This document shows positions 945-19,309 of a stretch of 20,000 nucleotides of DNA, piece by piece. Made by a program: the position numbers and the translations under genes. Numbering within the stretch: position 1 is the first letter of the stretch; each line of letters begins with the position of its first letter. The stretch comes from Chiloscyllium plagiosum (Eukaryota). The stretch spans positions 5,183,063 to 5,203,062 of the forward strand of contig NC_057753.1 in NCBI RefSeq assembly GCF_004010195.1. Direction: 5' to 3'. The notes below the pieces were generated by a model that was given only the letters and a program-made list of their open reading frames with translations, was not told where the DNA came from and did no database searches.

Positions 945-3526
945 GGGGTAAATGTAGAATCATAGGGCAGGAAGAATTGGTCTGGGTTTGTTACTCTTTG
1001 GAGTGTCAGTGTGAACTTGTTGGGCCAAATGGCCTGTTTCCAAACTGTGGGGATTCTATGATTCTGATTCCTGTTTCCCAGCACTTGGTCTGCAGCATTG
1101 TCTCCCAAGCCACTTCATGCAATTACCTAAGTATTTCTATCAATACTGCCTTTACGCAGTGAGTGTCAAACACCTACCACCCTCTGGCTGAAACAATTCC
1201 TCCTCAAAGCCCCTCTGAACAGCTTTTTTAAAAATCTGCGTTCCTTAGTCGATCCTGTCATTAAAAGGGAAAAGTTTTTTCCTATCATACCTATCTTTGC
1301 TTCTCATAATGTTGTAGATCTCAGTCCATAAGACATGGGAGTGGAAGTAAGGCCATTTAATCATGGCTGATGGGCATTTCAACTCCACTTACCCACACTC
1401 TCCCCATAGCTCTTAATTCCTTGTGAGTTCAAGAGTTTATCACTCTCTGCCTTGAAGATGTTTAATGTCCCCGCCTCCACTGCGCTTCGTGGCAATGCGT
1501 TCCACAGGCCCACCGCTCTCTGGCTGACGAAATGTCTTCTCATTTCTGATTTAAATTGACCCCCTCTAATTCTAAGGCTGTGCCCACGTCCTAGTCTCCC
1601 CGGCTAATGGAAATAATCTCCCAGCGTCCACCCTTTCTAAGCCATGCATTATTTTGTAAGTTTCTATTAGATCTCCCCTCAACCTTCTAAACTCCGATGA
1701 ATACAATCCCAGGATCCTCAGCTGTTCATTGTATGTTAGGCCTACCATTCCAGGGATCATCCATGTGAATCCCCGCTGGACACGCTGCAGTGCCAGTATG
1801 TCCTTCCTGAGGTGTGGGGCCCAAAATTGGACACTGTATTCTAAATGGAGCCGAACTAGAGCTCTATAAAGTCTCAGAAAGACATCGCTGCTTTTATATT
1901 CCAATCCTCTTGAGATAAATGACAATATTACACTTGCTGTCTTCACCACGGTCTCAAGCTGCAAGTCAATCTTTAGAGAATCCTGGACTAGCACTCCCAG
2001 ATCCCTTTGTACATTGGCTTTATGAATTTTCTCACCGTTTAGAAAATAGTTCATGCCTGAATTCTTTTTTCCAAAATGCAAGACCTCACATTTGCTCATT
2101 TCCTGGACCATTCTCCTAAACTGTCTGAATCTTTCTGCAGCTTCCCCACCTCCTCAGAACTACCTGCCTGTCCACCTAACTTCATATCATCGGTGAACTT
2201 CGCTAGAATGCCCCCAGTCCCTTCATCCAGCTCATTAATATATAAAGTGAACAGCTGCAGCCCCAACACTGAACCCTGCGGGACACCACTTGTCACCAGC
2301 TGCCATTCTGAAAAAGAACCATTTATCCCAACTCTCTGCCTTCTGACAGATGGCCAATCCTCAGTCCATGCCAATAGCTCACCTCAAACACCATGGGCCC
2401 TCACCTTACTCAGCAGCCTCCCATGAGGCACCTTATTAAAGGCGTTTTGGAAACCTTATTAAAGGTTTCCCTGGTCTAACCTAATTGTTACCTCTTCAAA
2501 GAATTCTAACAGGTTTGTCAGGCACGACCTTCCCTTACTGAATCCATGCTGACTTATTCTAACTTGACCGTACACTTCCAAGAATTTAGAAATCTCATCC
2601 TCAACGATGGATTCTAGAATTTTAACTACAACTGAGGTTAGGCTAATTGGCCTATAATTTTCCATCTTTTGTCTTGATCCTTTCTTGAACAAGGGGGTTA
2701 CAAACGCGATCTTCCAATCATCTGGGAATTTTCCTGACTCCAGTAATTTTTGAAAGATCAGAACCAACGCCTCCACTATTTCCTCCGTCACCTCCCACAG
2801 AACTCTAGGATGTAGCCCATCGAAGCCTGGAGATTTATCAATTTTTAGACCTTTTAGCTTTTCTAGCACTTTCTCTTTTGTAATGGCTACCATACTCAAC
2901 TCTGCCCCTTAACTCTCCTTAATTGTTTGGATATTACTCATGTCTTCCAGTGTGAAAACTGACACAAAGTACTTGTTAAGTTCTTCAGCTATTTCCTTAT
3001 CTCCCATCACTAGCCTTCCTGCATCAATTTAGAGTGGCCAATTTCTACTTTTGCCTCTCGTTTGTTTCTTATGTATTGAAAGAAACTTTCACGATCATTT
3101 CTAATATTACTGGCTAGTTTACCTTCATATTTAATCCTCTCCTTCCTTATTTCTCTCTTTGTTATCCTCTTTGTTTTTGTAGCCTTCCCAATCTTCACAC
3201 CCCTGTCATTACCCTTATTTAACTGTAACACCATTCCATCTGACAATGCCTTCTCTCTTTCAAACTGCAGACTGAACTCTACCATATTATGATTGCTGCC
3301 TCCTAAGTGTTCCCTTACTTTAAGATCTTTTATAAAGTCTGGCTCATTATATAGCATGAAGTCCAGAATAGCCTGCTCCCTTGTGGGTTCCATCACAAGC
3401 TGTTCCAAAAAGCCATTCTGTAAGCATTCCATGAATTCCCTTTCTTTGGATCCACCGGCAACATTACTCACTTAGTCAATTTGCATATTGAAGTCCCCCA
3501 TGATCACCGTGACCTTGCCTTTCTGA

Positions 3527-3730
3527 GAGAAAGTGAGGACTGCAGATGCTGGAGATCAGAGCTGAAAATGTGTTGCTGGAAAAGCGCAGCAGGTCAGGCA
3601 GCATCCAGGGAACAGGAGAATCGACGTTTTGGGCATGAGCCTGAAGAAGGGCTCATGCCCGAAACGTCGATTCTCCTGCTCCTTGGATGCTGCCTGACCT
3701 GCTGCGCTTTTCCAGCAACACATTTTCAGC
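3527..3730. mobile_element. PLE-derived hairpin element A (204 bp) inserted in the CR1, 14-bp TSD
   Basis: TSD CCTTGCCTTTCTGA at 3513-3526 and 3731-3744; inverted arms 3561-3641 and 3650-3730; unpaired 34-nt tail 3527-3560; hammerhead-like core at the apex. Confidence 0.88.
3641..3668 (+). ncRNA. Minimal hammerhead ribozyme core (stem I 5' strand lost)
   Basis: CUGAAGA-A-GGGC(UCAU)GCCC-GAAA-CG-UC; palindromic ACGU stem III; GUC cleavage triplet. Confidence 0.7.
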
Positions 3731-4309
3731 CCTTGCCTTTCTGACATGACCTATCTATTTCCTGGTACATTTTGCACCCCAGTCCTGGCCACTGCTGGGA
3801 GGTCCGTACATAGCTCCCATTATGGGTTTTTGTCTTTATGGTTCCTCAACTCCACCCAGACGGACTCCACATCATCTGACTCCATGTCATTCAGTGCCAT
3901 AGATTTAATTTCATTCTTAACTCACAAGGCAACCCTGCCCCCTCTGCCCACCTCCCTGTCTTTTCGATAAGTTGTAAATTCTTGGATGTTTAACTGCCAG
4001 TCCTGAACCCCCTGCAACCACGTCTCTGTGATGCCTACCACATCATAATCATTTACAATGATTGCTGCTGTTAATTCATCTACTTTGTTACGAATACTAT
4101 GAGCATTCAGGTAAAGCACCTTAATACTAATTTTTCTTATCCTCATGATTTCCATCACCTCTAGTAGTATGTCCTAAGTAATTCTTCCTTTTTTGTTTTA
4201 TTTCTAGTCTGCCTAGAACTTTAGCTCTGCTCACATGCTAACCTGCTGCTTACTTTCTACTTGACTCCATACTCCCTGTTGCTTTCCCTTTCCCCTCCCC
4301 CCCACCGAC

Positions 4310-4950
4310 TCACAAGTTTGAAGTCCTAGTGACCACCCTATTGATCCTTTTCACCAGAACGCTGGTTCCAGATCGGTTCAGGTGGAGGCCGTCCCATCGG
4401 TACAGATCTCCCCAGTTCCAAAACTGATGCCAATGTCCCATGAAATGGAATCCCTCCTTCCCACACCAATCTCTTAGCCACGTGTTTACTTCCCTAATTC
4501 TCTGTTCCCTATGTCAATTAGCACGTGGCTCAGGCAGTAATCCAGAGATTGTGACCCTCGAGGACCTGTTCTTCGATTTTGTTCCTCGCGCTTGATAATC
4601 CCCAAACAGATCCTCCTTCCTAGCCTTGCCGATGTTGTTAGTGCCAACGTGGACCGCAACAACTGGATCCTCTCCCTCCCGCTCCAATATCCTTTCAAGC
4701 CAGTCAGAGATGTCCTACACCCTGGCACCGGGCAGGCAACACACCATGAGGGACTCCCGATCCGGCTCACAAAGGATACTATCTGTCCCCTAATTAGAGA
4801 ATCCTTATAACAACTATTTGTCTTTTTGCTCCTCAGCTTTGAATGGCCTTCTGCGCCATGGTGCGGTCGTCAGCTGGCACATCCTCCCCATAGCCCTTTT
4901 CTCATCCATATTGGGGAGCAAAAGTCTCCTACCTGTTGGACAAGGTCAAG
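4310..4950 (-). pseudogene. CR1 ORF1 C-terminal SGNH/GDSL esterase domain, disrupted
   Basis: Manual translation gives IVVI(G)DSLIRGTD...CCLPGARV*D...VHVGTNNIG...ISGLLP...LYRWDGLHLN...TSNL* (GDS, GxN and DxxH blocks); 1-bp deletion at GDS and two stops. Confidence 0.88.
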
Positions 4951-5516
4951 GGCTGGTCCCTTCTCCATCTTCTCTGCTTCAAAGAAAAGGCCAGAGCTTT
5001 ATTGAGCCTCTCTTCATAGTTTGAAGTAGTCTGTTTGCAGGCAAAGGGACCTCCGGCAAGTGGGAGGCCTTTAAAAGTGAGATAGCTAGAGTTCAAGGTC
5101 TATATGTTCCTGTGGGGGTGAAAGGCAAGGTTGACAGGAATCAGGAACCCTGGATGACAGGAGATATTGAGGCTTTGGCCAGAAAAAAAGGAGGAGATGT
5201 GGCTCAGGTACAGGCAGCTGAGATCAAGGGAATCCCTGGAGGTATATAAGGGATACAGGAGTTTACTGGAAATCAGGAGGGCGAAAGGGGGGACACGAGA
5301 CAGCCTTGGTTGAGAAGATTAGGATGAATCCAAAGAGGTTCTTACATTTATTAAAGACGAAAGAATAACTAGGGAGAGAATAGGGCCCCTCAAGGATCAA
5401 AGTGGACATAGATGTGTAGAACCGCGGGAGATGGGTGAGGTCATCAATGAATATTTCTTCTCTGTGTTTTCCATGGGGGTTTGTGTGGGGGAGTGAGCGT
5501 GGGGGATGAGTGTGAC

Positions 5517-6058
5517 NNNNNNNNNNNNNNNNNNNNNNNNNNNNNNNNNNNNNNNNNNNNNNNNNNNNNNNNNNNNNNNNNNNNNNNNNNNNNNNNNNNN
5601 NNNNNNNNNNNNNNNNNNNNNNNNNNNNNNNNNNNNNNNNNNNNNNNNNNNNNNNNNNNNNNNNNNNNNNNNNNNNNNNNNNNNNNNNNNNNNNNNNNNN
5701 NNNNNNNNNNNNNNNNNNNNNNNNNNNNNNNNNNNNNNNNNNNNNNNNNNNNNNNNNNNNNNNNNNNNNNNNNNNNNNNNNNNNNNNNNNNNNNNNNNNN
5801 NNNNNNNNNNNNNNNNNNNNNNNNNNNNNNNNNNNNNNNNNNNNNNNNNNNNNNNNNNNNNNNNNNNNNNNNNNNNNNNNNNNNNNNNNNNNNNNNNNNN
5901 NNNNNNNNNNNNNNNNNNNNNNNNNNNNNNNNNNNNNNNNNNNNNNNNNNNNNNNNNNNNNNNNNNNNNNNNNNNNNNNNNNNNNNNNNNNNNNNNNNNN
6001 NNNNNNNNNNNNNNNNNNNNNNNNNNNNNNNNNNNNNNNNNNNNNNNNNNNNNNNNNN
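5517..6058. other. Assembly gap (542 N)
   Basis: Run of N flanked on both sides by G-rich repeat sequence. Confidence 0.99.
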
Positions 6059-6150
6059 GGTGAGTCTGACAGTGGGGTTGTGTGCGGGCGGTGAGTCTGA
6101 CAGTGGGGGTGTGTGCGGGCGGTGAGTCTGACAGTGGGGGTGTGTGCAGG
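6059..6150. repeat. G-rich 31-bp minisatellite (about 3 visible units; related sequence at 5476-5516 and 6150-6195)
   Basis: GGTGAGTCTGACAGTGGGG(G/T)TGTGTGCGGGC starting at 6059, 6090 and 6121. Confidence 0.85.
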
Positions 6151-6368
6151 GGGAGTGAGCGTGATGGTGGGGGAGTGTGACCTGGGGACTTGGGGAAGTT
6201 AGTGGTGATATCTTGAGGACAGTCCATATTGCAGTCAAGGAGGTGTGGATGTATTAAGGTGGATAAATCTCCTGGTCCTGACCAGATCTAGCCAAGAACA
6301 CTGCAAGTGGCAAGAGAAGAAATTGCAGGGGCCCTGGCTGGGTGAGGTCCCGGAAGACTGCAGGGTAG

Positions 6369-6807
6369 ATTTGAGCTATAGGGAGAGGCTGAACAGGCTG
6401 GGGCTGTTTTCCCTGGAGCGTCAGAGGCTGAGGGGTGACCTTATAGAGGCTTATAAGATCATGAGGGGCATGGAAAGGATAAATAGATAAAGTATTTTCT
6501 CTGGGGTGGGGGAGTCCAGAACTAGAGGGCATAGGGTTAGGGTGAGAGGGGAAAGATATAAAAGAGACCTAAGAGGCAGCTTTTTCACACAGAGGGCGGC
6601 ACGTGCATGGAATGAGCTGCCAGAGGAAGTGGTGGAGGCTGGTCCAATTGCAACACTTAAAAGGTATTTGGATGGGTATATGAATAGGAAGGGTTTGGAG
6701 GGATATGGGCCGGGTGCTGGCAGGTGGGACTAGATTGGGTTGGGATATCTGGTCGACATGGACGGGTTGGACCGAAGGGTCTGTTTCCGTGCTGTACATC
6801 TCTATGA
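6369..6807 (+). mobile_element. Nested 5'-truncated HER1-like CR1 3' end
   Basis: LSYRERLNRLGLFSLERQRLRGDLIEAYKIMRG, RAWNELPEEVV; ends GTGCTGTACATCTCTATGA; the host LINE resumes at 6808 (NVVPLFK). Confidence 0.85.
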
Positions 6808-8234
6808 ATGTTGTGCCATTGTTCAAGGAGGACTGCAAAGAAAATTCTGGGAACTATAGACCAGTAAACTTAATGTCTGTGGTGGTAAATTACTTGAGAA
6901 GATTCTGAGAGATAAGATGTACATGCATTTGGAAAGACTGGGTTTGATTAGGAGTAGTCAGCATGGCTTTGTGTGCGGATGATCATGCCTCACAAATTTG
7001 TTCGAGTTGTTTGATGAAGTGACCAGGAAGTTTGACGAAGGCAGGGTGGTAGATGTAGTCAATATGGCTTTCAGTAAGGCCTTTGAGAAGGTTCCACATG
7101 GTAGGCTGCTCTGGAAGGTTATATCACATGTAATCCAAGGCGAGCTGGTGAATTGGATACTCAGTTGGCTTGACAGTAGGAAGCAGATGGTAATAGTGAA
7201 AGGATGCTTATTGGACTAGAGGCCTGTGACTAGTGGAGTGCCTCAGGGGTCAGTGCTGAGTCCATTACTGTTTGTCATCTATATCAATGATATAGATGAG
7301 AATGTACGAGGCATGATTAGTAAGTTTATCGATGACACTAAAATACATGGTAATGTGGGCAGTGAGGAAGGTTGTGAGAAATTGCAGCTGGACCTTGATC
7401 AGCCGGGTAAGTGAGCCAAAACCTGGCAAATGGAGTTTAATATAGATTAGTGTGAGGTCTTGTGTTTTGAAAAGTTATGTCAAGGTAGGAGTTTCATGGT
7501 GAATGGTCGGGTCTTAAGGAGTGTAGTGGAACAGAAGGATCTTGGAGTTCAGGTGGACAGTTCTCTGAAAGTGGAGTCACAGGTAGACAGGGCAGTGAAG
7601 AAGGCTTTTGGTACACTGGCTTTCATCAGTCAGGGCATTGAGTATAGAAGTTGGGAAGTTATGTTGCAGTTATACAGGATGTTGGTGTGTATTGTGTTCA
7701 GTTTTGATCACCTTGCTATAGGAAGGATGTTATTAAACTGGAAAGAGTGCAGAAGAAATTTACAAGCATGTTGCCAGGACTCAATGGTCTGAGTAATAGG
7801 GAAAGGTTGGACAAGTTCGGATTTTATTCTTTGGATCGTAGGAGACTGAGGGGGGGATGCTATAGAGGTGTATAAGATCACGAGAGGCATGGAAAGGGTG
7901 AATGCACTCAATCTTTTTCCCAGGGTTGGGGAATTGGGGACTAGTGGGCGTCAGTTTAAGGTTAGAGAGTGGAAAGAATTAAAGGGAACCTGAGGGGCAA
8001 CATTTTTACACTGAGGGTAGTACACATATGGAATGAGCTGCCAGCAGGAGTGGTTGAGGTAGGTACATTACCAACATTTAAAAGGCATTTGGACAAATAC
8101 ATAGATAGGAAAGGTTTAGAAGGATATGGACCAAGTGCAGGGAATTTAGGTTAGTGTTAATGGACATTATGGTCTGCATGGACCAGTTTGGGACAAAGGG
8201 CCTGTCTCCGTGCTGTCGGACTCTATGACTCTGA

Positions 8235-8495
8235 TTTTGATTGGGAGAAGCTATTTGCAGCCAAAAGGATGTCTGGGAGGTGGGAGGCTTTCAGAAGTGA
8301 GTTAATGAGTGTTTAGGGCTAGCAATGTTCCTGTTAGAGTGAAATGTAAGGCTGGCATCAGGAGGGAACCTTGATTCCTGGAAGTTACTGAAGCCCTGGT
8401 CAAGAGAAAGGCATTTGGGATCAAGTGAATTCCTTGAGGAGTACAGAAGGTGTCGGAGTAGACTTGAGAGAGACATCAGGAGGGCCAAAAGGGGA
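8235..8495 (+). mobile_element. CR1 ORF2 internal fragment
   Basis: Diverged homologue of 5030-5290 (TTTGCAG..AAAGG..GTGGGAGGC..AAGTGAG, GGAACC, ATCAGGAGGGC). Confidence 0.7.
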
Positions 8496-8530
8496 CTCTG
8501 ATCTCCAGCATCTGCAGTCCTCACTTTCTC
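8496..8530 (+). mobile_element. Solo 35-bp PLE tail of family A
   Basis: CTCTGATCTCCAGCATCTGCAGTCCTCACTTTCTC is the exact reverse complement of 3527-3561. Confidence 0.85.
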
Positions 8531-8534
8531 TTGG

Positions 8535-8797
8535 CTATCTACCTTAGTGAGCGACATTATCTCTGCCTCTCATGATTTTAAAGATCTCAACAAAGTTTCC
8601 GACACACCAGGGAAGAAAATCCAAACTCTCCTTATAACTCAAACCTTCCAGTCTCGGTAGCATCCTAGTAAATCTTCTCTGCACTCTTTCTTGTTTAAGA
8701 AGGTCCTTTCTATAGTAGGGTGACCACAATTGCCGCAGTACTCCAAATGTGGCTTCACCAACATTTTGTACAGCTGCAATAAGACACCCCAACTCCT
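8535..8797 (-). mobile_element. CR1 ORF2 C-terminal fragment
   Basis: LQLYKMLVKPHLEYC, WSPYYRKD..ERVQRRFTRMLPRLEGLSYKE. Confidence 0.82.
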
Positions 8798-8799
8798 AA

Positions 8800-9550
8800 C
8801 TGGTCTAATTAGCAAGTTTGCGGATGACACAAAGATCGTTGGAGTTACGGGTAGTGAGGAGGATTGTCAGAGGATGCAGCAGGTTATAGATCAGTTAGAG
8901 GCATGGGCAGAAAAATGGCAGCTGGAGTTTAATCCGGACAAATGTGAAGCGATACATTTTGGATGGTCAAATACAGGTGGAAATTATACAGTGAATGGCA
9001 GAACCCTTAGGCGTATTGACATGCAGAGGGATCTGGGTGTGCAGACCCACAGATCACTGAAGGTGGTAGTGCAGGAAAGGCCCATGGCATGTGTGCCTTC
9101 ATTGGAAGGGGCATTGAGTATAAAGGCGGACAGGTTATGCTGCAGCTTTCTAGAACTTTAGTTCGGCCACACTTGGAATATTGCGTACAGTTCTGGTCAC
9201 CACACTATGCTTCAGACTGGAAATTATGAGGCTTTTTGTTCCCAGGGTGGAGGGGTTAATTACTAGGGGACTCAGGCTCATGGTGCGGGGTGGAAACTTT
9301 AAAAAAGAGAGGTAGGAAGCTTAAAAGAGATGTGCGAGGCACTTTTTTTTTACAGAAAGGTGTGTGTCTGGAATGCACTACCAGAGGAGGTGGTGGACAC
9401 AATTGTAGCATTCATGAAACACCTGGATGAAAACACGAATAGGAAGGGAATAGAGGGAAACAGATCCTGGAAGTGAAGACAGCTTTAGTATGGAAGGGCA
9501 AAATGCGACAGAGCAGGCTTCGAGGGTTTGTTTCTGTGCTGTATTCTTCT
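8800..9550 (+). mobile_element. CR1 RT to 3' end fragment with internal deletions
   Basis: ISKFADDTKI, WAEKWQLEFNPDKCE, QRDLGV; decayed 3' UTR to about 9550. Confidence 0.85.
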
Positions 9551-9564
9551 TTGCTCTCCATCGC

Positions 9565-9879
9565 TTTTCCCCATGGTAATGGAGTTTAAAACTAGAGGGC
9601 ATAAGTTTAAGGTGAGAGGGGAGAGACACGAAAGGGGGATTTTTTTTTTCCACACAGAGAGTGGTGAGTGTTGGAATGGACTGCCAGAGGTCATGGTGGA
9701 AGCGAGTACGATTTTGTCATTCAAGAAACATTTAGGTGGGTATATGGACGGGATAGGAATGGAGGGATACGGATCAAATGCAGGCAAATGGGATTAGTTT
9801 AATTGTGAAAACTGGGTGACATGCATAAGTTGGGCCGAAGGGCCTGCTTGCATGATGTAGACCTCGTTGAGTCTATGAC
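9565..9879 (+). mobile_element. CR1 3' end fragment
   Basis: KTRGHKFKVRGER, WNGLPEV..FKKHL..YMD; tail GGGCCGAAGGGCCTG..TCTATGA. Confidence 0.82.
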
Positions 9880-9904
9880 AGCGAAGTAACAGTCCACACA
9901 GCTC

Positions 9905-11045
9905 TTAGTCAGGATGGCGTGTGGCTTGAAGGGGAACCTCTAGATGGTGGTATTCCAATGAAAATGCCAGCTTGTCCTTCTAGATGGCAGAGGTCACAGT
10001 TTTATAAGATGCAGGAGAAGGATTGTTGGTCAATTTTGGCAGTCCTTCTTCTAGACAGTCCACAGTGCGGCCTGTGTGTGTCAGTGTTAGAGTGAATATC
10101 AAAGGTGGTGGTTAGAATCAGATTTACAGAATTGTTACAGTGCAGAAGGAGGCAACGTGCCTGTGTGAGCTCTGAGAGTCTCACTGAGTGCTATTTTCCT
10201 GCCCACTACCCGTAACTTTGCACTTTGATGCTTTTCAAATAACTGTCTCATTCTCTTTATGAATACCTTGATTGAAGCTTCCAAATTGAAGTATCAATTA
10301 ACTGGGCTCCTTTCTTCTGTATGGGGTTGAGTTTCGGGAATGCGGTTGGTGCAGCTGTTATCTGTGCGATCAGGGAGTATTCTACTGTACTCCCAATTTT
10401 AGACAGTGGACAGACTTTGGGGAGAAGGGAGGGAAGCGAATTACCACAGAATTCCCATCTCTGAGAAAGAAAGTCATTGCTGTATCAGCTGTAGTTGGTT
10501 GGATGGAGGACACAAGCGTGAGGAAGTTCTGGCATCCACAACAATCTTCCTTTGTGTTCGGGATTGCTCGAACAAGTGGACTGTTTTCACCCTGATTCCC
10601 ATTGACTTCACGGTTACATGTAGCCTTGTTGTTAAGGGGAGTCACTCTCACCTCACTTCAAGAATTCAGCTGAAAATGTGTTGCTGGAAAAGCGCAGCAG
10701 GTCAGGCAGCATCCAAGGAACAGGAGAATCGACGTTTCGGGCAAATTCAGCTCCCAGGATATGCAGGTCCTGGGCCTGCTCCACCGCCAAACCAATACCA
10801 CCTGACTCCTGGAGGAAGACTGCCTCCCATTTAACTCCCCACTCCCTTGTGCCACCTCCTCATTCCTGATTAAGAGCTTATGCTTGAAACGTCGATTCTC
10901 CTGCTCTTCAGATGCTGCCTGACCGGCTGTGCTTTTCCAGCAACACTCCTCGACCAGTTTTGGACCAGGTCTATCACGAGGTCAGCAGCTGAGTGGCCTT
11001 GGTGGAATCTGAACAGAAAGCCCAGTAAGCAGGTTATTGCTAAAA
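9905..11045 (-). mobile_element. Very old LINE fragments (CR1/L2 group) with nested insertions
   Basis: Minus-strand VKSMGIRVKTVHLFEQSRTQRKIVV at about 10540-10615 resembles a LINE RT segment; 9910-10290 is homologous to 18910-19300. Confidence 0.55.
10669..10954 (+). mobile_element. PLE family A hairpin retaining a GIY-YIG C-terminal remnant between the arms
   Basis: Left arm 10669-10742 matches 3561-3634; spacer reads QDMQVLGLLHRQTNTT*LLEEDCL (PLE endonuclease C-terminus-like); right arm about 10881-10947; degenerate hammerhead ATTC-CTGATTA-A-GAGC(TTAT)GCTT-GAAACGTC-GATT at 10862-10897. Confidence 0.8.
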
Positions 11046-11077
11046 AATGCTTCACAGAACTGCCAAAAGTCGGGTGA

Positions 11078-11415
11078 CAGTGCTGCCTCACCGCAACGGA
11101 GGTGCAGATTGGATTCCAGCCTCAGGGGACTGTCTGTGTTGGAGTTTGCAAATTCTCTCCGTATCTTCATGGGTTTCCTCCGGGTTCTCCGGTTTCCTCC
11201 CACAGTCCAAAGCTGAGCTGATTAGGTGGATTGGCCATGCTAAATTGACCAGGAGGTCCAGGGATGTGCAGGCCAGGTGGATTAGCCATGGGAAATGTGG
11301 GATTATAGGGGGAGATAAGGGGGTTTGGTTTGGCTGGGATGCTCTTCAGAGGGTTGGTGTGGACTCGAGGCTCTGAATGGTCTACTTGCACACTGTCAGA
11401 AATCTATAATTCAAT
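11078..11415 (+). mobile_element. HE1-like V-SINE, diverged
   Basis: GGGTTTCCTCCGGGTTCTCCGGTTTCCTCCCACAGTCCAAAG, GATTGGCCATGCTAAATTG and a LINE-like tail. Confidence 0.85.
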
Positions 11416-11522
11416 GAATTCCATTTTCCATCAGTTTGCTGATGACCGGAATTAGACCAAAGAAGCAGTTATTGCTTTAATTGCCACTAGTGGGGACATC
11501 TCGAAATAGGATACACTATTGT

Positions 11523-11856
11523 GGGCGGCACGGTGGTACAGTGGTTAGCACTGCTGCCACACAGTGCCAGAGACCCAGGTTCAATTCCCGCCTCAGGTGA
11601 CTGACTGTGGGGAGTTTGCATGTTGTCCCTGTGTCTGTGTGGGTTTCGTCCGGGTGTTCCGGTTTCCTCCCACAGTCCAAAGATGTGCAGGTCAGGTGAA
11701 TTGGCCATGCTAAATTGCCTGCAGTGTTAGGGAAGGGGTAAATGTAAATGTAGGGGTTGGGGTATGGGTGGGTTGCGCTTCGGCGGGTCGGTGTGGACTT
11801 GTTGGGCCGAAGGGCCTGTTTCCACACTGTAATGTAATGTAATCTAATCTAATCTA
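11523..11856 (+). mobile_element. Full-length HE1-like V-SINE
   Basis: 5' GGGCGGCACGG; A-box TGGTACAGTGG at 11532-11542; B-box GGTTCAATTCC at 11577-11587; V-domain; 3' (TAATG/TAATC)n tail. Confidence 0.92.
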
Positions 11857-11859
11857 TTT

Positions 11860-12110
11860 ACAGAATAGAGGGAAGGACATTTGCTTATCCGAGGAAAGGG
11901 AAGGTCTGGAATTCCCTACCCAGAGAATTGTGGAAGGTAGATCACTGGCAGAAATTAAAGAGGATTTAGATAGATTATTGAATGTCAGGGTGTTGAGGGA
12001 TATGAGGAACTGGCAAAAAAGTGAAGTTGAAGCTTGGGGTAAGTAGGCCTTGATCTTTTAAAATAGCTTGAGAGGATGAATGACCCAAGCCTGCTCCTAT
12101 TTCCCTGTTC
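11860..12110 (+). mobile_element. Old CR1 3' end
   Basis: TGGAATTCCCTACCCAGAGA..GTGGAAG, TTAGATAGATT, CCTGCTCCTATTTCCCTGTTC. Confidence 0.6.
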
Positions 12111-12299
12111 ATTCCAACTCCCTGTGAAAGGAATTTGCAAACTCCCTCACTTTTAGTCCAGGATAGAAATTCGAAAGACCCAATATTTTTTTCATGGGTG
12201 GAAGTTGCTGTGCACAAATCCTCCCCTTCTAACCCGCTGTCAAAGCAGTTCCCAGCTGCAGTTTCTAACTGGGGTCTTGGGGATGGGGGGCATGTTCCT

Positions 12300-12610
12300 G
12301 TCTCAAGGTTCCGCCCTTTGTCCCTTTAAATCCCACCCTCGGTCCTTCCAGCTCCAGCGCCGGCGAAGCGCATGCTTCGCACCGCTGTCCAGTCCCGCCC
12401 CTTCATTGACTCCGATTGGTTGGAGGACCAGCGCTGTCCTCCGGTCCTCCAGGCCCGCCTCCTCCCTCGCTATTGGACTTGACTATCCGTCAATCATCCA
12501 GCCCTTTGGTGCGGGAGCAGACCTGCGCAGCATGGTTTTGCTCCCCGAACGGCTGTGCACATGCGCGGCCGCCATTTTAGCAGCTTTCTTCAAAGTGGGG
12601 TCAGGGTCTT
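12300..12610 (+). promoter_or_regulatory. CpG-rich putative promoter of the zinc-finger gene
   Basis: Local CpG enrichment; GC boxes at 12394-12400 and 12454-12460; reverse CCAAT (ATTGG) at 12415 and 12472; NRF1-like GCGCATGC at about 12368 and TGCACATGCGC at 12556-12566; YY1 motif CCGCCATTTT at 12569-12578. Confidence 0.72.
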
Positions 12611-12929
12611 GTCTCCAGCTGTAACCATTAGTCAGAATGGGTTGGAGATAATTATCCAATATTTTATTGGGATTTCACCCAGGAATGAGGGTGGGAGAGA
12701 AAAAGAGAAAGTGTGGGGGACGGGGAATTATTATTTGGAGGGAACAAGAGAGGAAAATACACCACAGAAACTGGAATTGTCTGTTTAATGATTTCTCTGC
12801 CTCACTGACAGTGAACTGTTTGGTCACAGGGACTAGAAGAGGAGGGTCACATCAAGGAAACCCAAAACAAAGCATCAGGGCAAGGTCTGACAGTGACACC
12901 AACATCAGGAGTTGAACATCACTGCTGTC

Positions 12930-13190
12930 TTGATTGTGGAAGGAGACGTGTTTGCTTTGTCTGAGGGGAAGGATTTCTAACATCAATACGACTGGAAGAG
13001 CACCGAGCCGCACCTGAGTGAGAGTGTTCCAGTGAGCTGACTGTGTACAGCGCTTTCACCAGACACACAGACTTTAAGAAACTATTTAGAGGAGAAACTG
13101 CGCACCTGCAATAGGGTTAGGTGTTCTCTGACTGGATAAGATTTGAACTGATCCTTCAATATGGAGGGGCACAAAGACCCTGTCACCATG
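12930..13190 (+). pseudogene. Two to three decayed zinc-finger units upstream of the ORF
   Basis: Finger-like remnants (GGGAAGGATTT..CTGGAAGAGCAC, GTGTTCCAGTG..GACTGT, GAGGAGAAACTG..ACCTGC) running into the MEGHKDPVTMEKP start. Confidence 0.5.
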
Positions 13191-14921
13191 GAGAAACCAT
13201 GTAAATGTGTGGAGTGTGGGAAGGGATTCAGATTTCCATCCAGGCTGGACGTGCATCGACGCACGCACACTGGGGAGAAACCATTCACCTGCTCAAAATG
13301 TGAGAAGGGATTTGCTCGTTTGTGCAGCTTACAGATACACCAGAGAACTCACACTGGAGAGAAACCATTCATCTGCATCAAGTGTGGTATGGGATTTGCT
13401 CATTCATCCAGTTTACGTGTACACCAGCGAATTCACACTGGGGAGAAGCCATTCAAATGCTCAGAGTGTGAAAAGGGGTTTGCTCATTTATCCAGCTTAC
13501 AAATGCACCAGAGAACTCACACTGGGGAGAAATCATTCATCTGCTCTGACTGTGGTAAGGGGTTCACTCATTCAACCAGTTTACATGTACACCAGAAAGC
13601 TCACACAGGAGAAAGACCATTCACCTGCTCTGACTGTGGGAAGGGATTTCTTCAGTCATCCAAGTTACATCAACACCAAAGAATTCACACTGGGGAGAAA
13701 CCGTTCGTCTGCTCTGAATGTGGGAAGGCATTTGCTCAGTCATCCACTTTAAATGTCCACCAGAGAATTCACACTGGAGAGAGACCGTTCACCTGCTCCA
13801 AGTGTGGGAAGGGATTCGCTCAGTCATCCAGCTTACATGAACACTGGAGAACCCACACCGGTGAGAGACCATTCATCTGCTCTTACTGTGGGCAGGGATT
13901 CGCTGAGTCATCCACCTTACTTAACCACCAGAGACTTCACACTGGAGAAAAACCATTCGCTTGCTCTGAGTGCGGGAAGCGATTCACTCAGTTGTCCAAC
14001 TTGCATCAACACCAGAGAACGCACACTGAAGAAAAACCGTTCACCTGCCCTGAGTGTGGGAAGGGATTTGCTCAGTCTTCCAAGTTACGTGAACACTGGA
14101 GAACTCACACCGGGGAGAAACCATTCATCTGCTCTGACTGCGGGAGGGGATTCGCTCAGACGTCCACCTTGCGTGCACATCGGAGAATTCACACCAGAGA
14201 GAAGCCATTCATCTGTTCTGAGTGTGGGAAGGGATTTGCTCAGTCATTCAAGCTGCACCAACACCAGAGAACTCACACTGGGACGAAACGTTCATCTGCT
14301 ATGACTGTGGGCTGGGATTCACTCAGTCATCCACCTTACATGTACAGCAGCGAATTCACACTGGAGAGAAATGACTCACCTGCTCCAAACGTGGGAAGGG
14401 ATTTGCTCAGGCATCTAGCTTACATGAACACTGGAGACCTCGCACTGGGGAGAAGCCATTCATCTGCCCTGAGTGTGGGAGGAGATTTGCTCAGTCTTCC
14501 AAGTTACATGAACACTGGAGAATTCGTATCTGGGAGAAACCATTCAACTGCTCTGATGATGGGCAGGGATTCCCTCAGCCATCCACCTTGCATAACCACC
14601 AGAGAACTCACACTGGAGAAAAACTGTTCACCTGCCCTGAGTGTGGGAGGGGATTTGCTCAGTCTTCCAAGTTATGTGAGCTCACGTGAAACCACCGGAG
14701 AACTCACACTGGAGAAAAACCATCCACCTGCTCTGACCACTGGAAGAGATTCACTTGGTTATCCGACATACATTCATAGCACGGAACTCACAGTGGAGAA
14801 AAACTCTTCACCTGCCCTGGGTGTTGGAAGGGATTTACTGAGTCACCCAAGTTCTGTGAACACTGGAGAATTCGCACCGGGGAGAAGCCATTCATCTGCT
14901 GTGACTGTGGGAAGGGATTAG
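13161..14921 (+). CDS. C2H2 zinc-finger protein: 13 intact fingers plus a frameshift-derived tail of about 210 aa; no KRAB or SCAN domain visible
   Basis: 13 C-x2-C-x12-H-x3-H units with TGEKP-type linkers at about 13200-14280; -1 frameshift near 14289; start may be M1 (13161) or M10 (13188). Confidence 0.85.
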   Translation: MEGHKDPVTMEKPCKCVECGKGFRFPSRLDVHRRTHTGEKPFTCSKCEKGFARLCSLQIHQRTHTGEKPFICIKCGMGFAHSSSLRVHQRIHTGEKPFKCSECEKGFAHLSSLQMHQRTHTGEKSFICSDCGKGFTHSTSLHVHQKAHTGERPFTCSDCGKGFLQSSKLHQHQRIHTGEKPFVCSECGKAFAQSSTLNVHQRIHTGERPFTCSKCGKGFAQSSSLHEHWRTHTGERPFICSYCGQGFAESSTLLNHQRLHTGEKPFACSECGKRFTQLSNLHQHQRTHTEEKPFTCPECGKGFAQSSKLREHWRTHTGEKPFICSDCGRGFAQTSTLRAHRRIHTREKPFICSECGKGFAQSFKLHQHQRTHTGTKRSSAMTVGWDSLSHPPYMYSSEFTLERNDSPAPNVGRDLLRHLAYMNTGDLALGRSHSSALSVGGDLLSLPSYMNTGEFVSGRNHSTALMMGRDSLSHPPCITTRELTLEKNCSPALSVGGDLLSLPSYVSSRETTGELTLEKNHPPALTTGRDSLGYPTYIHSTELTVEKNSSPALGVGRDLLSHPSSVNTGEFAPGRSHSSAVTVGRD

Positions 14922-15093
14922 CTCAGACTCGCAGGTCGCATGTACGTCAGAGAGGTCACACTGGAAAGAAAAAACGTTCGCCTGACCTGAGTGCGGGAAG
15001 AGATTCACTCAGGTTTCCAACTTAAAACAACAGTGTGCGAAATGATACACTCACTCATCCGATCTGCTGAGGGATCAGCAAGGTCATGAGTGA
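14291..15093 (+). pseudogene. About 9 decayed C2H2 fingers (plus a partial one) in the ancestral reading frame
   Basis: Manual translation: FICYDCGLGFTQSSTLHVQQRIH, *LTCSKRG.., FICPECGRRF..HWRIR, FNCSDDG.. and so on, with stops and lost Cys/His ligands. Confidence 0.85.
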
Positions 15094-15746
15094 CTGTGGG
15101 GGGGGTGGGTCTAACAGCTTCTATAATGTACTTGTGTAATGGCTTGCAAACTTTATCACGTGTATAATCAGCTTGCCATTTTTGAACAATTCATCCGTGT
15201 TTGTGTGAGGGTCGGATCATCTGGTTTGAGGATTTCAGATGTCGTGTGTCGATCACGAAATGATGTCTCCAATCCAGATCGCTAAGGGTTCATTGGACAT
15301 GGCAATAAGCCACTGATGGAGAGCGGAAAAGCAAGTGAGAACCGGCAGTTTCGCAAGAAGATGGCCTTTTGGCGTAAGAACAGCTTGATTTGCAGCAACG
15401 CCGGGACTAGTTTTTGACCACCAAGCACAGAGGAATGCTTAGGAAATCTACTCAGAGGAGGCAGTGTAGCACGTGACATAAGATCCAGTATCTTATTATT
15501 GTATGGGACTTTTCACAGTTCGTTGGACTTCTGCGGATTGGGTTCACACGTGGTGCCGTGGGAGTTGAGATTGAGCTCCAAGTGCCAGCCATCACCGGGT
15601 TTCCTGACGAGTGAAAGGATGTGAGGTTTATGTGTTTTAATATATCTAAAGTAGTTTAAGTTATTAATTTTGTTGAACTCTGTCTAAAGTAGTGTAAGCT
15701 AATAATTATTAGATTACTATATATATATTATTCAGTGATCTAAGCT

Positions 15747-15752
15747 AATAAA
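15747..15752 (+). terminator. Candidate polyadenylation signal for the zinc-finger gene
   Basis: AATAAA at the end of an AT-rich tract about 830 bp after the stop, followed by TTTGTGTGG. Confidence 0.35.
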
Positions 15753-15839
15753 TTTGTGTGGCACACTAGTTTGGTCTCAGCTGAAATGCCATATCCAGTT
15801 CTGTGGGCCGCATTTTGCAAGCATTACAGAGATTTCATC

Positions 15840-16630
15840 GAGTATTACAGCACACACAGAGACCCTGTGGCTCATCGTGCCCAAATCAGTTGTCAAGTCC
15901 CTATCTACTTTAATCCCGATTTGGAGATGCCGGTGTTGGACTGGGGTGTACAAAGTTAAAAATCACACAACACCAGGTTATAGTCCAACAGGTTGAATTG
16001 GAAGTACACTAGCTTTCGGAGCGACGCTCCTTCACAAGCACCTGATGAGGGAGCAGTGCTCTGAAACCAATGCTTCCAATTCAACCTGTTGGACTATAAC
16101 CTGGTGTTGTGTGATTTTTAACGTTGTACTTTAATCCCATTTCCCAGCACTTGTGTGCAATGGCAGCTCAAGCATTCAACTAAATCCTTCTTAAATGTAG
16201 TTTCTGCCTGGACGCAGAGAGTTCCAGGTACCTACCAGCCTCTGGCAGGAATGATTTTGCATCCCCTCTAAACTTCCTGCCTTTTACTTTAAATCCACGC
16301 ATCCCCGTGTCATTGATCCTGTGGCTAAAGGGGAAGACTTTTTTCCTAACATCCCTGTGTATAATAATTTTGTAGACCTCAGTCAGGTCACCCCTCAACC
16401 TTCTCTGCTTCATATCAAAAGACACAGCTTATCTGGCCTCTCTCTATAGTTAAACTGATCCATATCAGAAATGTCCTGGGAAATCTCCACAACCTTCCTA
16501 CAGGAGAGTGACCAGAGCTGTGCACGGTACTCCAGCTGTGGCCTGAGTAATGTCATATCCAGTCCCATCTTAACCTCCCTGCTTTTGTGTTCAGTGCCTC
16601 AGTGATTAGAGGCAAGTATCCGATATGCCG
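15840..16630 (-). mobile_element. Old CR1 3' region, host of hairpin B
   Basis: QRRLRGDLTEVYKII..GFKVKGRKFRGD in the 16180-16425 ORF. Confidence 0.75.
15918..16126. mobile_element. PLE-derived hairpin element B (209 bp), 12-bp TSD
   Basis: TSD TACTTTAATCCC at 15906-15917 and 16127-16138; arms about 15948-16034 and 16046-16129; 30-nt tail 15918-15947; CTGATGA..GGAGC(AGT)GCTCT-GAAA at 16042-16066; arms match the ends of the PLE at 16754-18806. Confidence 0.88.
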
Positions 16631-16874
16631 AGTGCAGATTTGTTTTCCTTTAAGCTTTCACAGAGGATGTGGGTGTCACTGGTGAGGCTGACATTTAGTG
16701 ACCATCTCTAAATGCTCTGCAGAAGGTGGTGGTGAGCTGCCTTCTTTAACCACGTTAAAAATCACACAACGCCAGGTTCTAGTCCCAAGTTAAAAATCAC
16801 ACAACACCAGGTTATAGTCCCAAGTTAAAAATCACACAACACCAGGTTATAATCTCAACAGGTTTGTTTGGAAG

Positions 16875-16909
16875 CACTAGCTTTCGGAGCAGTGCTCCTT
16901 CATCAGGTG
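16875..16909 (-). ncRNA. Intact minimal type I hammerhead ribozyme motif in the PLE repeat
   Basis: Minus strand CAC-CUGAUGA-A-GGAGC(ACU)GCUCC-GAAA-GC-UA-GUG: stem I CAC/GUG, 5-bp stem II, palindromic AGCU stem III, CUA cleavage triplet. Confidence 0.82.
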
Positions 16910-16933
16910 GTTGTGGAGTATAAGATTGTAGGA

Positions 16934-17056
16934 CTGCATTAGTCAGTTGTTAATGTAGAGTCATAGGAGAATGGGTCTGGGTGGCATACTCTTTGGAGGG
17001 TTGGTGTGGACTTGTTGGGCCGAAGGGCCTGTTTCCACACTGTAGAGATTTTATGA
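16934..17056 (+). mobile_element. HE1-like SINE 3' fragment nested in the left PLE repeat
   Basis: GGTGTGGACTTGTTGGGCCGAAGGGCCTGTTTCCACACTGTAG; absent from the right repeat. Confidence 0.85.
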
Positions 17057-17582
17057 CACAGAATTTATAGCAAAAGTTTACAGTGTGGTGTAGCTGAAAT
17101 TACAGATTGAAAAAGACCTGAATTGTTTGTTAAGTCTGTTCACCTTTCAGAATGGGCATGTTGGTCTCAGTACGTAAATCCCAGAACTTTTTTTTTTAAA
17201 GTTACATTCTCAAGTGAACTTTAACAATAGGTTCCACGTTGGCCCAGATAATGCACTGAAGATGTGAGGTGCCCCGGGTGAGGCTGTCAGTGCCCCAATG
17301 TTCAGACTGATTCTCATCTAAAAAAGGGATTTACAGAATCTTACATGGATTCATATAGTTTTTGAGCAAAATAAAGTGTATTTCTACAAGTACAAATGCA
17401 CCCCACCGACTTTTATGTGTGCGCGCATGGGGTGGAGGAGGTATGAGTGTCTGTGAGAGCGCGTGTATGTGTGTGAGTGTAAAGAGGTATAAGTCTGTGA
17501 GAGTGCGCGTGTGGGAGTGTGTGAGCGTATGAGAGAGCTTATGTATGAGAGAGGGTCTGTATGTGTGTGTAGTGCAGTGGGG

Positions 17583-18192
17583 TCACCTGTAGTGTGACAT
17601 TAACCCAAGGTCCCGGTTGAGGTCATCTCCGTGGATACCGAACTTGACTATCAGCCTCTGCTCAGCCACTTTGTGTTGTTGCCTGACCCACAGTCCGCCT
17701 TGGAGGGTGGTCACCCGACGGTCTGAGGTCGAATGTCCAAGATCGCTGAGGTGTTCTCCGACTGGGAGGGAACACTCCTGGCTGGTGGTTGTTGTGTGGT
17801 GCCCATTCATCCGTTGCCATAGCCTCTGCTCGGACTCGCCAACGTACCATGCCTCAGAGTATCCTTGCCTGCAGCGTATGAGATAGACAACGTTGGCCGA
17901 GTTACAAATACCTACCATGGTGGGTGGTGTCCCCATGTATAATGGTGGTATCCGTGCCCACACTCTGATACATCTTGCAGCGCCTACCGTGACAGGGTTG
18001 TATGGTATTGGCGTGAAAGCTGGGCAGTTTGCTATGAACAATGATCTGTTTGAGATTTGGTGGTTGTTTAAAGGCGAGCAGTGGGGGCGTGGGGAAGGTC
18101 TTGGCGAGGTGCTCATCCTCATTGTTAATGTGTTGCAGACTGTGAAGAACATGGTGTAGTTTTTCAGCTCCTGGAAAGTACTGGACAACGAA
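17583..18192 (-). pseudogene. PLE ORF C-terminus: linker, Cys-rich motif and GIY-YIG endonuclease, frameshifted
   Basis: FVVQYFPGAEKL..AFKQPPNLKQII, QPCHGRRCK, then CNSANVVYLIRC..WYVGE..QRMNGH..VGEH..AEQRLI..GDDLNRD. Confidence 0.88.
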
Positions 18193-18473
18193 TCAGTATG
18201 ACCAATGGGGCACAGACAGCCTCGCACAGGGTACCTCCCACCTTCAATGCATTATCTGGGCCGGCGTGGCATCTATTGTTAAAGTTCACTTGAGAATGTA
18301 ACTTTAAGAAAGTTCTGGGATTGACATATGAAAGAACTGAAACCAACATGGTCATTCTAAAAGATGAGAGACTTAACAAACAATCCAGGTTTTTTCAATA
18401 TAGAAGTTCAGTTACATCACATTCTAAACTTTTGCTATAAATTCTGTGTCCTCTGATTCTTACACTCCACAAC

Positions 18474-18506
18474 CACCTGATGAAGGAGCAGCGCTCTGAA
18501 AGCTAG
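18474..18506 (+). ncRNA. Hammerhead motif of the right PLE repeat, interrupted by hairpin C
   Basis: CAC-CUGAUGA-A-GGAGC(AGC)GCUCU-GAAA-GC-UA-G; the stem I partner GTG is displaced to 18724-18726. Confidence 0.75.
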
Positions 18507-18711
18507 AACCAAAAGAGAAAAGTTTGGCAGCATCTGTAAGGAGAGTAAAGAGCTGTCATTTCGAGTCTAACTGACCCTTTGTCAAAGGGTCAGTTAGACT
18601 CGAAACATCAGCTCATTGCTGTCCTTACAGATGCTGCCAGACCTGCTGGGATTTTCCAGCATTTTCTCTTTTGGTTTCAGATTCCAGCATCCGCAGTAAT
18701 TTGCTTTTATC
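18507..18711. mobile_element. PLE-type hairpin element C (205 bp), 13-bp TSD
   Basis: TSD CTCTGAAAGCTAG at 18494-18506 and 18712-18724; perfect 23-bp inverted repeat 18559-18581 and 18583-18605 within longer arms; 35-nt tail 18677-18711; GGGTC(AGTTA)GACTC-GAAACATC resembles hammerhead stem II and core. Confidence 0.85.
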
Positions 18712-19309
18712 CTCTGAAAGCTAGTGCTTCCAAATAAATCTGTTAGACTTGTGCGTTTTTTTAACTTTGTCCACCCCAGTCCAACACTGGCAACTCCACC
18801 TCATGGCTTCTTTAACCACAGCAGTCGAGGGACACCCATAATATAATCAGGGAGAAAGTTCCAGGATTTCAGCCAGTGACAGTGAAAGAATGGTTGATAC
18901 AGTTCCAAGTCAGGGTGATGTGTGTCTTGGAGGGGAAACTGTAGATGGTGCTGAAAATTAAAAATGCCACCCTTGTTCTTCTGGATGACAGGGGTCACAA
19001 GTTTGCATATCAATGGCGAAGGATTTTTCATGAATTATAGCAGTCCTTCTTGTAGATAGTGCACAGTGCGGCCTGTGTGTGTGTGTCAGTGATGGAGTGA
19101 GTGTTAAAGGTGATTGGAATCAGGTTTGCGGAATAGTTACGGTGCAGAACGAGGCAGTTTGGCCCACGTGTCTGTGCGAGCTCTGAGGGGTTTCTCACTG
19201 AGGGACACTTTCTTGCCTGCTGCCTGTAACTCTTCATGCTGAACCCTTCCAAATAAAAACATCAATATCTTTATGGATATCTTGATTGAAGCTCCCAGAT
19301 TTTTTTTTT

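Follow-up and report, generated by a model that had tools for sequence, protein, structure and literature searches.

Short hairpin insertions in the Chiloscyllium plagiosum genome are stubs of Penelope-like elements whose arms stop at a putative RNA start

Introduction

The architecture of Penelope-like elements (PLEs), with inverted ends, a tail, and a target site duplication (TSD), has already been published (PMC8557442, PMC3846280, PMC8969392), and Craig et al. 2021 (PMC8557442) called the formation of the inverted ends and tails still undefined. Insertion units of endonuclease-positive PLEs comprise an inverted 5′-truncated copy, a one-sided tail of 30 to 40 bp, a TSD, and an overlap or palindrome at the junction (PMC8557442, PMC3846280). 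Here, we describe the same anatomy for three hairpins, named A, B, and C, in a 20,000-nucleotide (nt) stretch of Chiloscyllium plagiosum DNA (RefSeq assembly GCF_004010195.1, contig NC_057753.1, positions 5,183,063 to 5,203,062 of the forward strand), which is termed the window herein.

Dual minimal hammerhead ribozymes, 100 to 700 bp apart on opposite strands, were described in PLEs by Cervera and de la Pena 2014 (PMC4209133). The families of A, B, and C share with these the dual opposite-strand motifs, an extra base after A9, a palindromic helix III, and, in C, the U3-A8 variant, which is known from Schistosoma PLEs; the accessible part of that study contains no analysis of junctions, TSDs, or start sites. 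Non-LTR retrozymes (PMC7229834; bioRxiv 10.64898/2026.07.22.740005) are likewise short and noncoding, carry a type I hammerhead, and have their ancestry in PLE pseudo-long terminal repeats (pLTRs), but they form head-to-tail repeats, self-cleaved monomers, and circles, whereas each of A, B, and C is a lone head-to-head insertion containing no more than one ribozyme, and that incomplete. The PLE PAc (Poseidon, Anolis carolinensis; Frangieh et al. 2024, PMC11167929) was studied in vitro, where priming occurs internally at two sites bounding the tail, the template is mostly uncleaved RNA, and both target strands are cut and extended; the portion of that account available to us holds no treatment of 5′ stops, caps, or hairpin products. 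L1 twin priming (PMC4859970) is similar in that two target ends prime, microhomology is found at the inversion, and untemplated G occurs at complete 5′ ends.

We conclude that A, B, and C are stubs of PLEs and not a new class of self-copying elements. Most likely, they are head-to-head, 5′-truncated PLE ends that form afresh at each insertion from a capped, uncleaved sense RNA.

Results

Anatomy of the three hairpins

Positions within the elements are counted from the predicted hammerhead cut (position 0; negative upstream, positive downstream). The features are as follows.

3513-3526, plus strand: left TSD copy of A, an exact 14-bp repeat (right copy, 3731-3744)
3527-3641, minus strand: tail-bearing arm of A, −18 to +96 (tail, 3527-3560)
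3640-3730, plus strand: tail-less arm of A, −28 to +62, overlapping the tail arm by 2 nt at 3640-3641
3641-3668, plus strand: minimal hammerhead core of A from the motif scan, intact, with helix I missing its 5′ strand, and enclosed within the long duplex
15906-15917, plus strand: left TSD copy of B, an exact 12-bp repeat (right copy, 16127-16138)
15918-16034, minus strand: tail-bearing arm of B, about −22 to +92 (tail, about 15918-15950)
16034-16126, plus strand: tail-less arm of B, starting at the inferred +1 A (−36), with a mutated core at 16042-16070
18494-18506, plus strand: left TSD copy of C, an exact 13-bp repeat (right copy, 18712-18724), lying in its target, the hammerhead core of a long B copy
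18507-18587, minus strand: tail-less arm of C, which extends to −32, carries a mutated core of the U3-A8 type, and lacks ∼17 nt internally
18583-18711, plus strand: tail-bearing arm of C, −26 to +102 (tail, 18677-18711), with a 5-nt overlap at the apex

A preliminary description of the window had given the coordinates, the lengths, long fold-backs, one-sided tails, and TSDs of 12 to 14 bp, and all of these hold on re-measurement, with total lengths of 204, 209, and 205 bp, tails of 34, ∼33, and 35 nt, and exact TSDs of 14, 12, and 13 bp for A, B, and C, respectively. The arms are 88 to 98% complementary over 57 to 84 nt, which excludes chance fold-backs. Position −18 (tail arm) is joined to −28 in A, −22 to −36 in B, and −26 (tail arm) to −32 in C; the arms, as already noted in that description, extend upstream of the predicted cut, by 18 to 36 nt. 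Of the hammerhead cores, that of A alone is intact; those of B and C are mutated. On the minus strand, C carries the U3-A8 core variant, which a scan for the CUGANGA motif misses. In a forced-fold computation, opening the core of A against the long duplex costs 37 kcal/mol. Rfam searches returned no hammerhead family, only sub-threshold hairpin (microRNA [miRNA]) matches, which were discarded. The three elements had been placed in separate sequence families; by sequence comparison, B is indeed not related to the others, but A and C, with a 32-nt block in common at 91% identity, are distant relatives.

Element C with its TSDs (18494-18724) sits within the hammerhead core of a long B copy, and family-A insertions are found inside other PLE copies too, for example at locus L102.

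Larger copies and their coding remnants

The window contains two larger relatives of the hairpins.

16754-18806: long family-B head-to-head insertion with a 13-bp TSD and cores at 16878-16906 (minus strand) and 18477-18505 (plus strand)
16747-16855: three 35-nt repeats in head-to-tail order, at the end of the long B insertion that has no tail
17583-18251, minus strand: open frame of 222 codons comprising a Cys linker and a PLE-type endonuclease remnant, without a Pfam match
10669-10954: family-A head-to-head relative with a short C-terminal endonuclease remnant, no tail, and no TSD

Coding remnants of PLEs are joined to each of the three families, in support of the PLE origin suggested earlier. 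The larger B relative bears out its first description, with its TSD and its open frame encoding a PLE-like endonuclease. Relatives of this frame are very numerous (35,278 first-look candidates, of which 150 were scored); one of them, L249, has a 480-codon frame in which reverse transcriptase (RT) is followed by the Cys linker and the endonuclease, and its RT matches Pfam RVT_1 at an E value of 6.9e-06, below the cutoff. In family A, copy L188 contains RT pieces and endonuclease pieces. The larger A relative in the window does have the endonuclease remnant ascribed to it, but it lacks a tail and a TSD, and its arms are unequal (97% and 87% identical to the family-A reference), so that, judged by sequence, it may derive from two separate events. 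The preliminary description had tied two families to PLEs; the tie holds for A and B and now extends to C through the long copy L127, which has the endonuclease C terminus alone, in a frame ending upstream of the core.

Pfam searches of the window frames and locus frames gave no match to a GIY-YIG family, and the endonuclease in the frames linked to A, B, and C is assigned by its motifs. The Cys linker (CX2-5CxxC) between RT and endonuclease, a feature of the Neptune/Nematis type, is present in B, and its last Cys is changed in the single A copy translated. A minimal type I hammerhead is predicted at the motif level in long copies of A, B, and C. In L055, a B copy bearing an open reading frame (ORF), the tail reads directly into the ATG of the ORF, so the core and tail make up the 5′ leader. 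In PAc, the hammerhead overlaps the start of the ORF and priming occurs within it (PMC11167929); the family-B tail, by contrast, stops right at the ATG.

The three 35-nt repeats in 16747-16855 look as if priming had restarted at the inner site. At L104, L133, and L206, a young family-A subfamily has arms identical to each other and kilobase-long interiors with gaps.

Sizes and junctions of unselected copies

Similarity searches with whole A, B, or C favor copies that share the junction of the query, and questions about the class were therefore addressed in an unselected sample of 140 stretches of 10 kb taken at fixed steps (1.4 Mb, including 44,489 N). Match thresholds were at least 86% identity for A and C and at least 80% for B, and older relatives were dropped. 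This sample yielded 45 head-to-head pairs (110 to 3,886 bp) and 52 unpaired arms in family A, 19 pairs (149 to 1,637 bp) and 24 unpaired arms in family B, and 4 pairs, two of them doubtful, in family C. Among the first 40 cutouts of family C in genome order, 19 had both arms, with spans of 148 to 363 bp.

A class size of ∼205 bp, as first proposed, is not borne out. Only 9/45 A pairs and 4/19 B pairs measure 195 to 215 bp, the C pairs spread as stated, and the 205 bp of the window C element are due solely to the tail-less arm being short by ∼17 nt. Short pairs, defined as head-to-head pairs of 260 bp or less, account for 32 of the 45 A pairs and 16 of the 19 B pairs; in comparison with the PLE units in the accessible parts of PMC8557442 and PMC3846280, the minimal form dominates here. 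The junctions of the short pairs are nearly all distinct (29/32 in A and 16/16 in B); the exact recurrence of the junction of the window A element is described below. The tail is on exactly one arm in 43/45 A and 18/19 B pairs. TSDs of 10 to 21 bp flank 37/45 A pairs, with a mode of 14 to 15 bp that is longer than in the published units, and TSDs of 10 to 15 bp flank 11/19 B pairs; the same detection was positive at 2/300 random positions. TSDs were found for 6/47 unpaired A arms and 3/24 unpaired B arms. In the unpaired arms at L174, L106, L125, L156, and L217, the TSD copy lies 6 to 14 nt upstream of the 5′ end of the arm, which places extra bases between target and arm.

Miniature inverted-repeat transposable elements (MITEs) moved by a DNA transposase would also be short, noncoding, and present in very many copies with inverted arms. 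However, the one-sided tail in 61/64 pairs, TSDs of 10 to 21 bp, variable inner and outer junctions, and the continuity with copies bearing RT and endonuclease leave this explanation practically no chance; the long, variable TSDs and asymmetric ends refute it, in agreement with the preliminary description. Retrozymes would be expected as head-to-tail repeats with complete hammerheads, and the pairs are head-to-head, with helix I incomplete or the core mutated. The features of endonuclease-positive PLE insertion products, namely, ORF continuity, an inverted truncated copy with a tail, a variable TSD, and a hammerhead motif, are all present.

The arms stop upstream of the ribozyme cut

In the fixed-step sample, the rate at which arms stop was 0.074 per nt at positions −36 to −24 in A (58 events) and 0.065 in B (25 events), ∼10 times the rate at the cut itself (0.007 in A and 0.004 in B); elsewhere, rates were 0.003 to 0.015. 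Unpaired arms share this stop position with paired arms, and young arms alone gave 0.059 in A and 0.061 in B. The scarcity of stops at the cut and their pileup upstream indicate an uncleaved template, as the preliminary description had supposed, and led us to reject the 5′ end of self-cleaved RNA as the end of the template. The finding resembles that made with PAc in vitro (PMC11167929).

The modal stop in A is −31 (18 arms), an A in an initiator-like context that matches the vertebrate initiator consensus. The matching +1 A in B is −36, with TATAAA 28 to 33 nt before it in 19 long copies (mode, 32). In C, TATAAA lies 31 to 33 nt before a stop edge at −34 in 7 copies. The site at which the fold-back points pile up is likely the start of the capped RNA of the element. 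For comparison, transcription of Penelope in D. virilis starts within the pLTR from a TATA-less promoter (PMC8557442, PMC2377424).

Two other sources of the stop positions were considered and rejected. Subfamily mismatch does not account for the peak in A, where the flanks of 24 unpaired stoppers are unrelated bar one pair and young arms keep the peak, although mismatch may still affect some old B arms. For C, the AG of a 3′ splice site would place the edge 2 nt off.

An extra G precedes the stop

Arms that start at the +1 A with a nonnative base before it gave 11,050 matches in A and 3,971 in B, and the first 100 rows of each were counted by eye. The preceding base was G in 57/100 A rows and 68/100 B rows, compared to 26% expected from composition (binomial P values of 5e-11 and 2e-18, respectively). 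No G excess was seen 2 to 4 nt further up or at other stop positions (8/31 and 11/42). A script filter selected rows unexplained by the partner arm, and among these G preceded +1 in 11/16 A and 14/16 B rows; because its test for a native base mis-sorted some B rows, by-eye counts for arms joined to unrelated DNA are given beside it, namely, 7/11 in A (one duplicate counted once) and 6/8 in B, together 13/19. The ORF-bearing copy L055 also begins with G and the same +1 site. An untemplated G has been read as evidence of a cap for L1 and SVA in a review (PMC4859970). In the literature searched, which did not extend to subscription journals, Dfam, Repbase, or supplements, we found no account of 5′ stops at a capped PLE start, and the 5′ stop with its extra G is probably an unreported mechanistic signature; it also sets the hairpins apart from the published PLE units, as far as the accessible text of PMC8557442 and PMC3846280 goes, in that the 5′ stop is mapped to one site.

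The same double-primed origin could be combined with a 5′ stop set by the ribozyme fold or a bound protein, either through RT stalling or through trimming of the RNA to helix I. In each of the three families, stops cluster close to or at the 5′ edge of helix I, which would fit, as would the lack of the G signature in C and the report that a PLE protein aids hammerhead folding in vitro (PMC11167929). Against it, an RT that travels 3′ to 5′ along the RNA would first encounter the fold at +1 to +4, and the stop rate there is at background; no stop excess exists on the 3′ side of the fold. Moreover, in B the pileup marked by the G falls 5 nt past helix I, and TATAAA is spaced from it as expected. 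A fold leaves the position-specific G unexplained. We consider a fold-set stop unlikely, and the earlier wording that RT stops at the ribozyme fold fits poorly, while its broader proposal of a stereotyped product of double-primed insertion is supported.

Two 3′ ends and a proposed run-off scheme

The 3′ ends fall into two classes ∼35 nt apart, at +97 and ∼+53 to +65 in A and at +92 and +56 to +60 in B, resembling the two initiation sites that bound the tail in PAc (PMC11167929). Tail-less ends show microhomology with the target (mean, 1.84 nt; ≥2 nt in 29/56). The two arms of a pair agree in subfamily variants in 93% of comparisons in A versus 57% in the null (39 unselected pairs) and in 82% versus 64% in B, the latter within shuffles. 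Divergence between arms ranges by subfamily from 0 to 6 to 7%.

From this anatomy and these counts, we infer an order of priming, a cap, and a joining chemistry. The GIY-YIG endonuclease would cut the target in a stagger of about 13 to 14 bp, and both 3′ ends would prime reverse transcription, one starting at the tail end (in B, just before the ATG of the ORF) and the other ∼35 nt further in, aided by 1 to 4 nt of pairing. Primed inside the 5′ leader, RT would copy about 90 to 130 nt, run off the capped 5′ end of the uncleaved sense RNA, and often add a C opposite the cap. The two cDNA ends would then be trimmed back and united through microhomology within helix II, which is self-complementary, or with a few extra bases. 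Leaders of about 128 and 93 nt would set the usual size of 200 to 230 bp, longer copies would stem from read-through transcripts, and the hammerhead would be a passenger in the hairpin stubs. In L1 twin priming, the two cDNAs copy different parts of the RNA, whereas here both would copy the same 5′ leader, giving a palindrome.

A single cDNA folding back, or self-priming on an antisense template, was proposed for palindromic junctions by Arkhipova et al. 2013 (PMC3846280), and it would account for arms carrying the same subfamily variants and for junctions that use 1 to 5 nt of self-complementarity. At the junction of A, however, the longer, loop-bearing arm is the tail-less one in 25/29 loci, and a fold-back from it supplies no tail; in addition, the G that precedes an initiator on the sense strand speaks for a sense template, and unpaired arms stop at the same place. 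This route is a long shot in our view.

Weighing the run-off scheme

Several observations weigh against formation of each hairpin from a capped sense RNA as outlined above. The unselected sample offers only small G counts at +1 (5/8 and 3/4). The stop edge of C has no G excess (7/36), and one base further in there is no clear excess (∼39/100, to which A-to-G changes contribute). Family A carries only a weak T-rich, TATA-like stretch at 32 nt, and its +1 coincides with the 5′ edge of helix I, where start and fold are inseparable. Of three runs of poly(A) single-cell reads aligned to a long A copy, one gave 2,102 reads, another gave none, and the last gave contigs; no site where many molecules begin was seen. 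The arm concordance of 93% fails to tell one RNA from two, and one RNA and two contemporaneous RNAs are indistinguishable because the subfamilies differ in age. At these repeats, the assembly contains gaps and what look like chimeras. Finally, both window A and window B have twins at unrelated sites (L002:1501-1704 and L032:1501-1703; 100% and 98.5% identity, respectively) that share private changes with them.

These twins, with the high likeness among copies of A, also bear on the self-propagating ribozyme mini-retroelement class of the preliminary description, in which hairpins would be nonautonomous and copied whole from hairpin masters by PLE proteins. The best 40 matches to A are 97 to 100% identical over 201 to 204 nt, its junction has 1,009 exact 34-nt matches (control, 0), and the twin of B has its own ∼10-bp TSD and yet retains the private degenerate core of B. 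However, the best matches were chosen for likeness by the similarity search, unselected junctions are nearly all distinct (the two twins being the exceptions to the lack of a fixed internal structure inherited from a master), and a hairpin transcript is predicted to be unable to fold the ribozyme. The recurrent junction itself was found on four subfamily haplotypes among the first 30 loci, of which 25 have the tail on the −18 arm, 4 have it on the −28 arm, and 1 lacks it, and the tail-less end is highly variable; in the first 100 rows counted by eye, 81 had one variant on both arms, 14 had the other variant, and 5 were mixed. Because of the four backgrounds, the switching side of the tail, and the variable tail-less ends, the junction is one that formed repeatedly at a microhomology and was not inherited from a master. 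With sizes continuous as well, a mini-retroelement class is unsupported as a rule, and copying from hairpin masters is very improbable.

For the twins, gene conversion or assembly fill-in is the likelier origin because these repeats show gaps and shared flanks in the assembly; rare re-mobilization may also have occurred. The twin of A, with a decayed TSD around an identical interior, would fit conversion or fill-in. Loci L009 and L012, on different contigs, have 623 bp in common at 100% identity, including one flank, and L012 is tailed on both sides, possibly as an assembly chimera.

Significance of the hairpins

As elements, the hairpins are ordinary PLE debris, for which the labels MITE, miRNA hairpin, and new retrozyme are inappropriate; as evidence, they speak to the way in which PLEs acquire inverted ends and tails. 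We lean, at somewhat better than even chances, toward reading the ∼100,000 hairpins as a genomic record of the PLE cycle, in which a capped, uncleaved sense RNA made by Pol II would start at or just before helix I, both nicks would prime in the leader, ordinary mRNA would give twin run-off cDNAs only, and coding copies would arise only from read-through tandem transcripts. Together with the TATA spacing, the extra G and the initiator-like A yield an exact, testable prediction of starts at −31 in A and −36 in B. If true, the run-off scheme would explain pLTRs, inverted ends, and tails together and would argue against an antisense template. By rough extrapolation to the genome, there are 80,000 A and 40,000 B hairpins, numbers at which they could be a major source of double-stranded RNA and cruciforms in this genome.

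Other features of the window

A further trace of family A in the window is an isolated tail.

8496-8531, plus strand: lone family-A tail, 100% match

This tail lies between the members of an inverted 113-nt pair (7699-8732; 75% identity) that are apparently fragments of long interspersed nuclear elements. An array of ∼21 84-bp repeats resembling C2H2 zinc fingers occupies 13153-15032, with breaks in spacing that suggest decay. Positions 201-820 and 945-1562 represent a tandem duplication of ∼742 to 744 bp with 96 to 100% identity.

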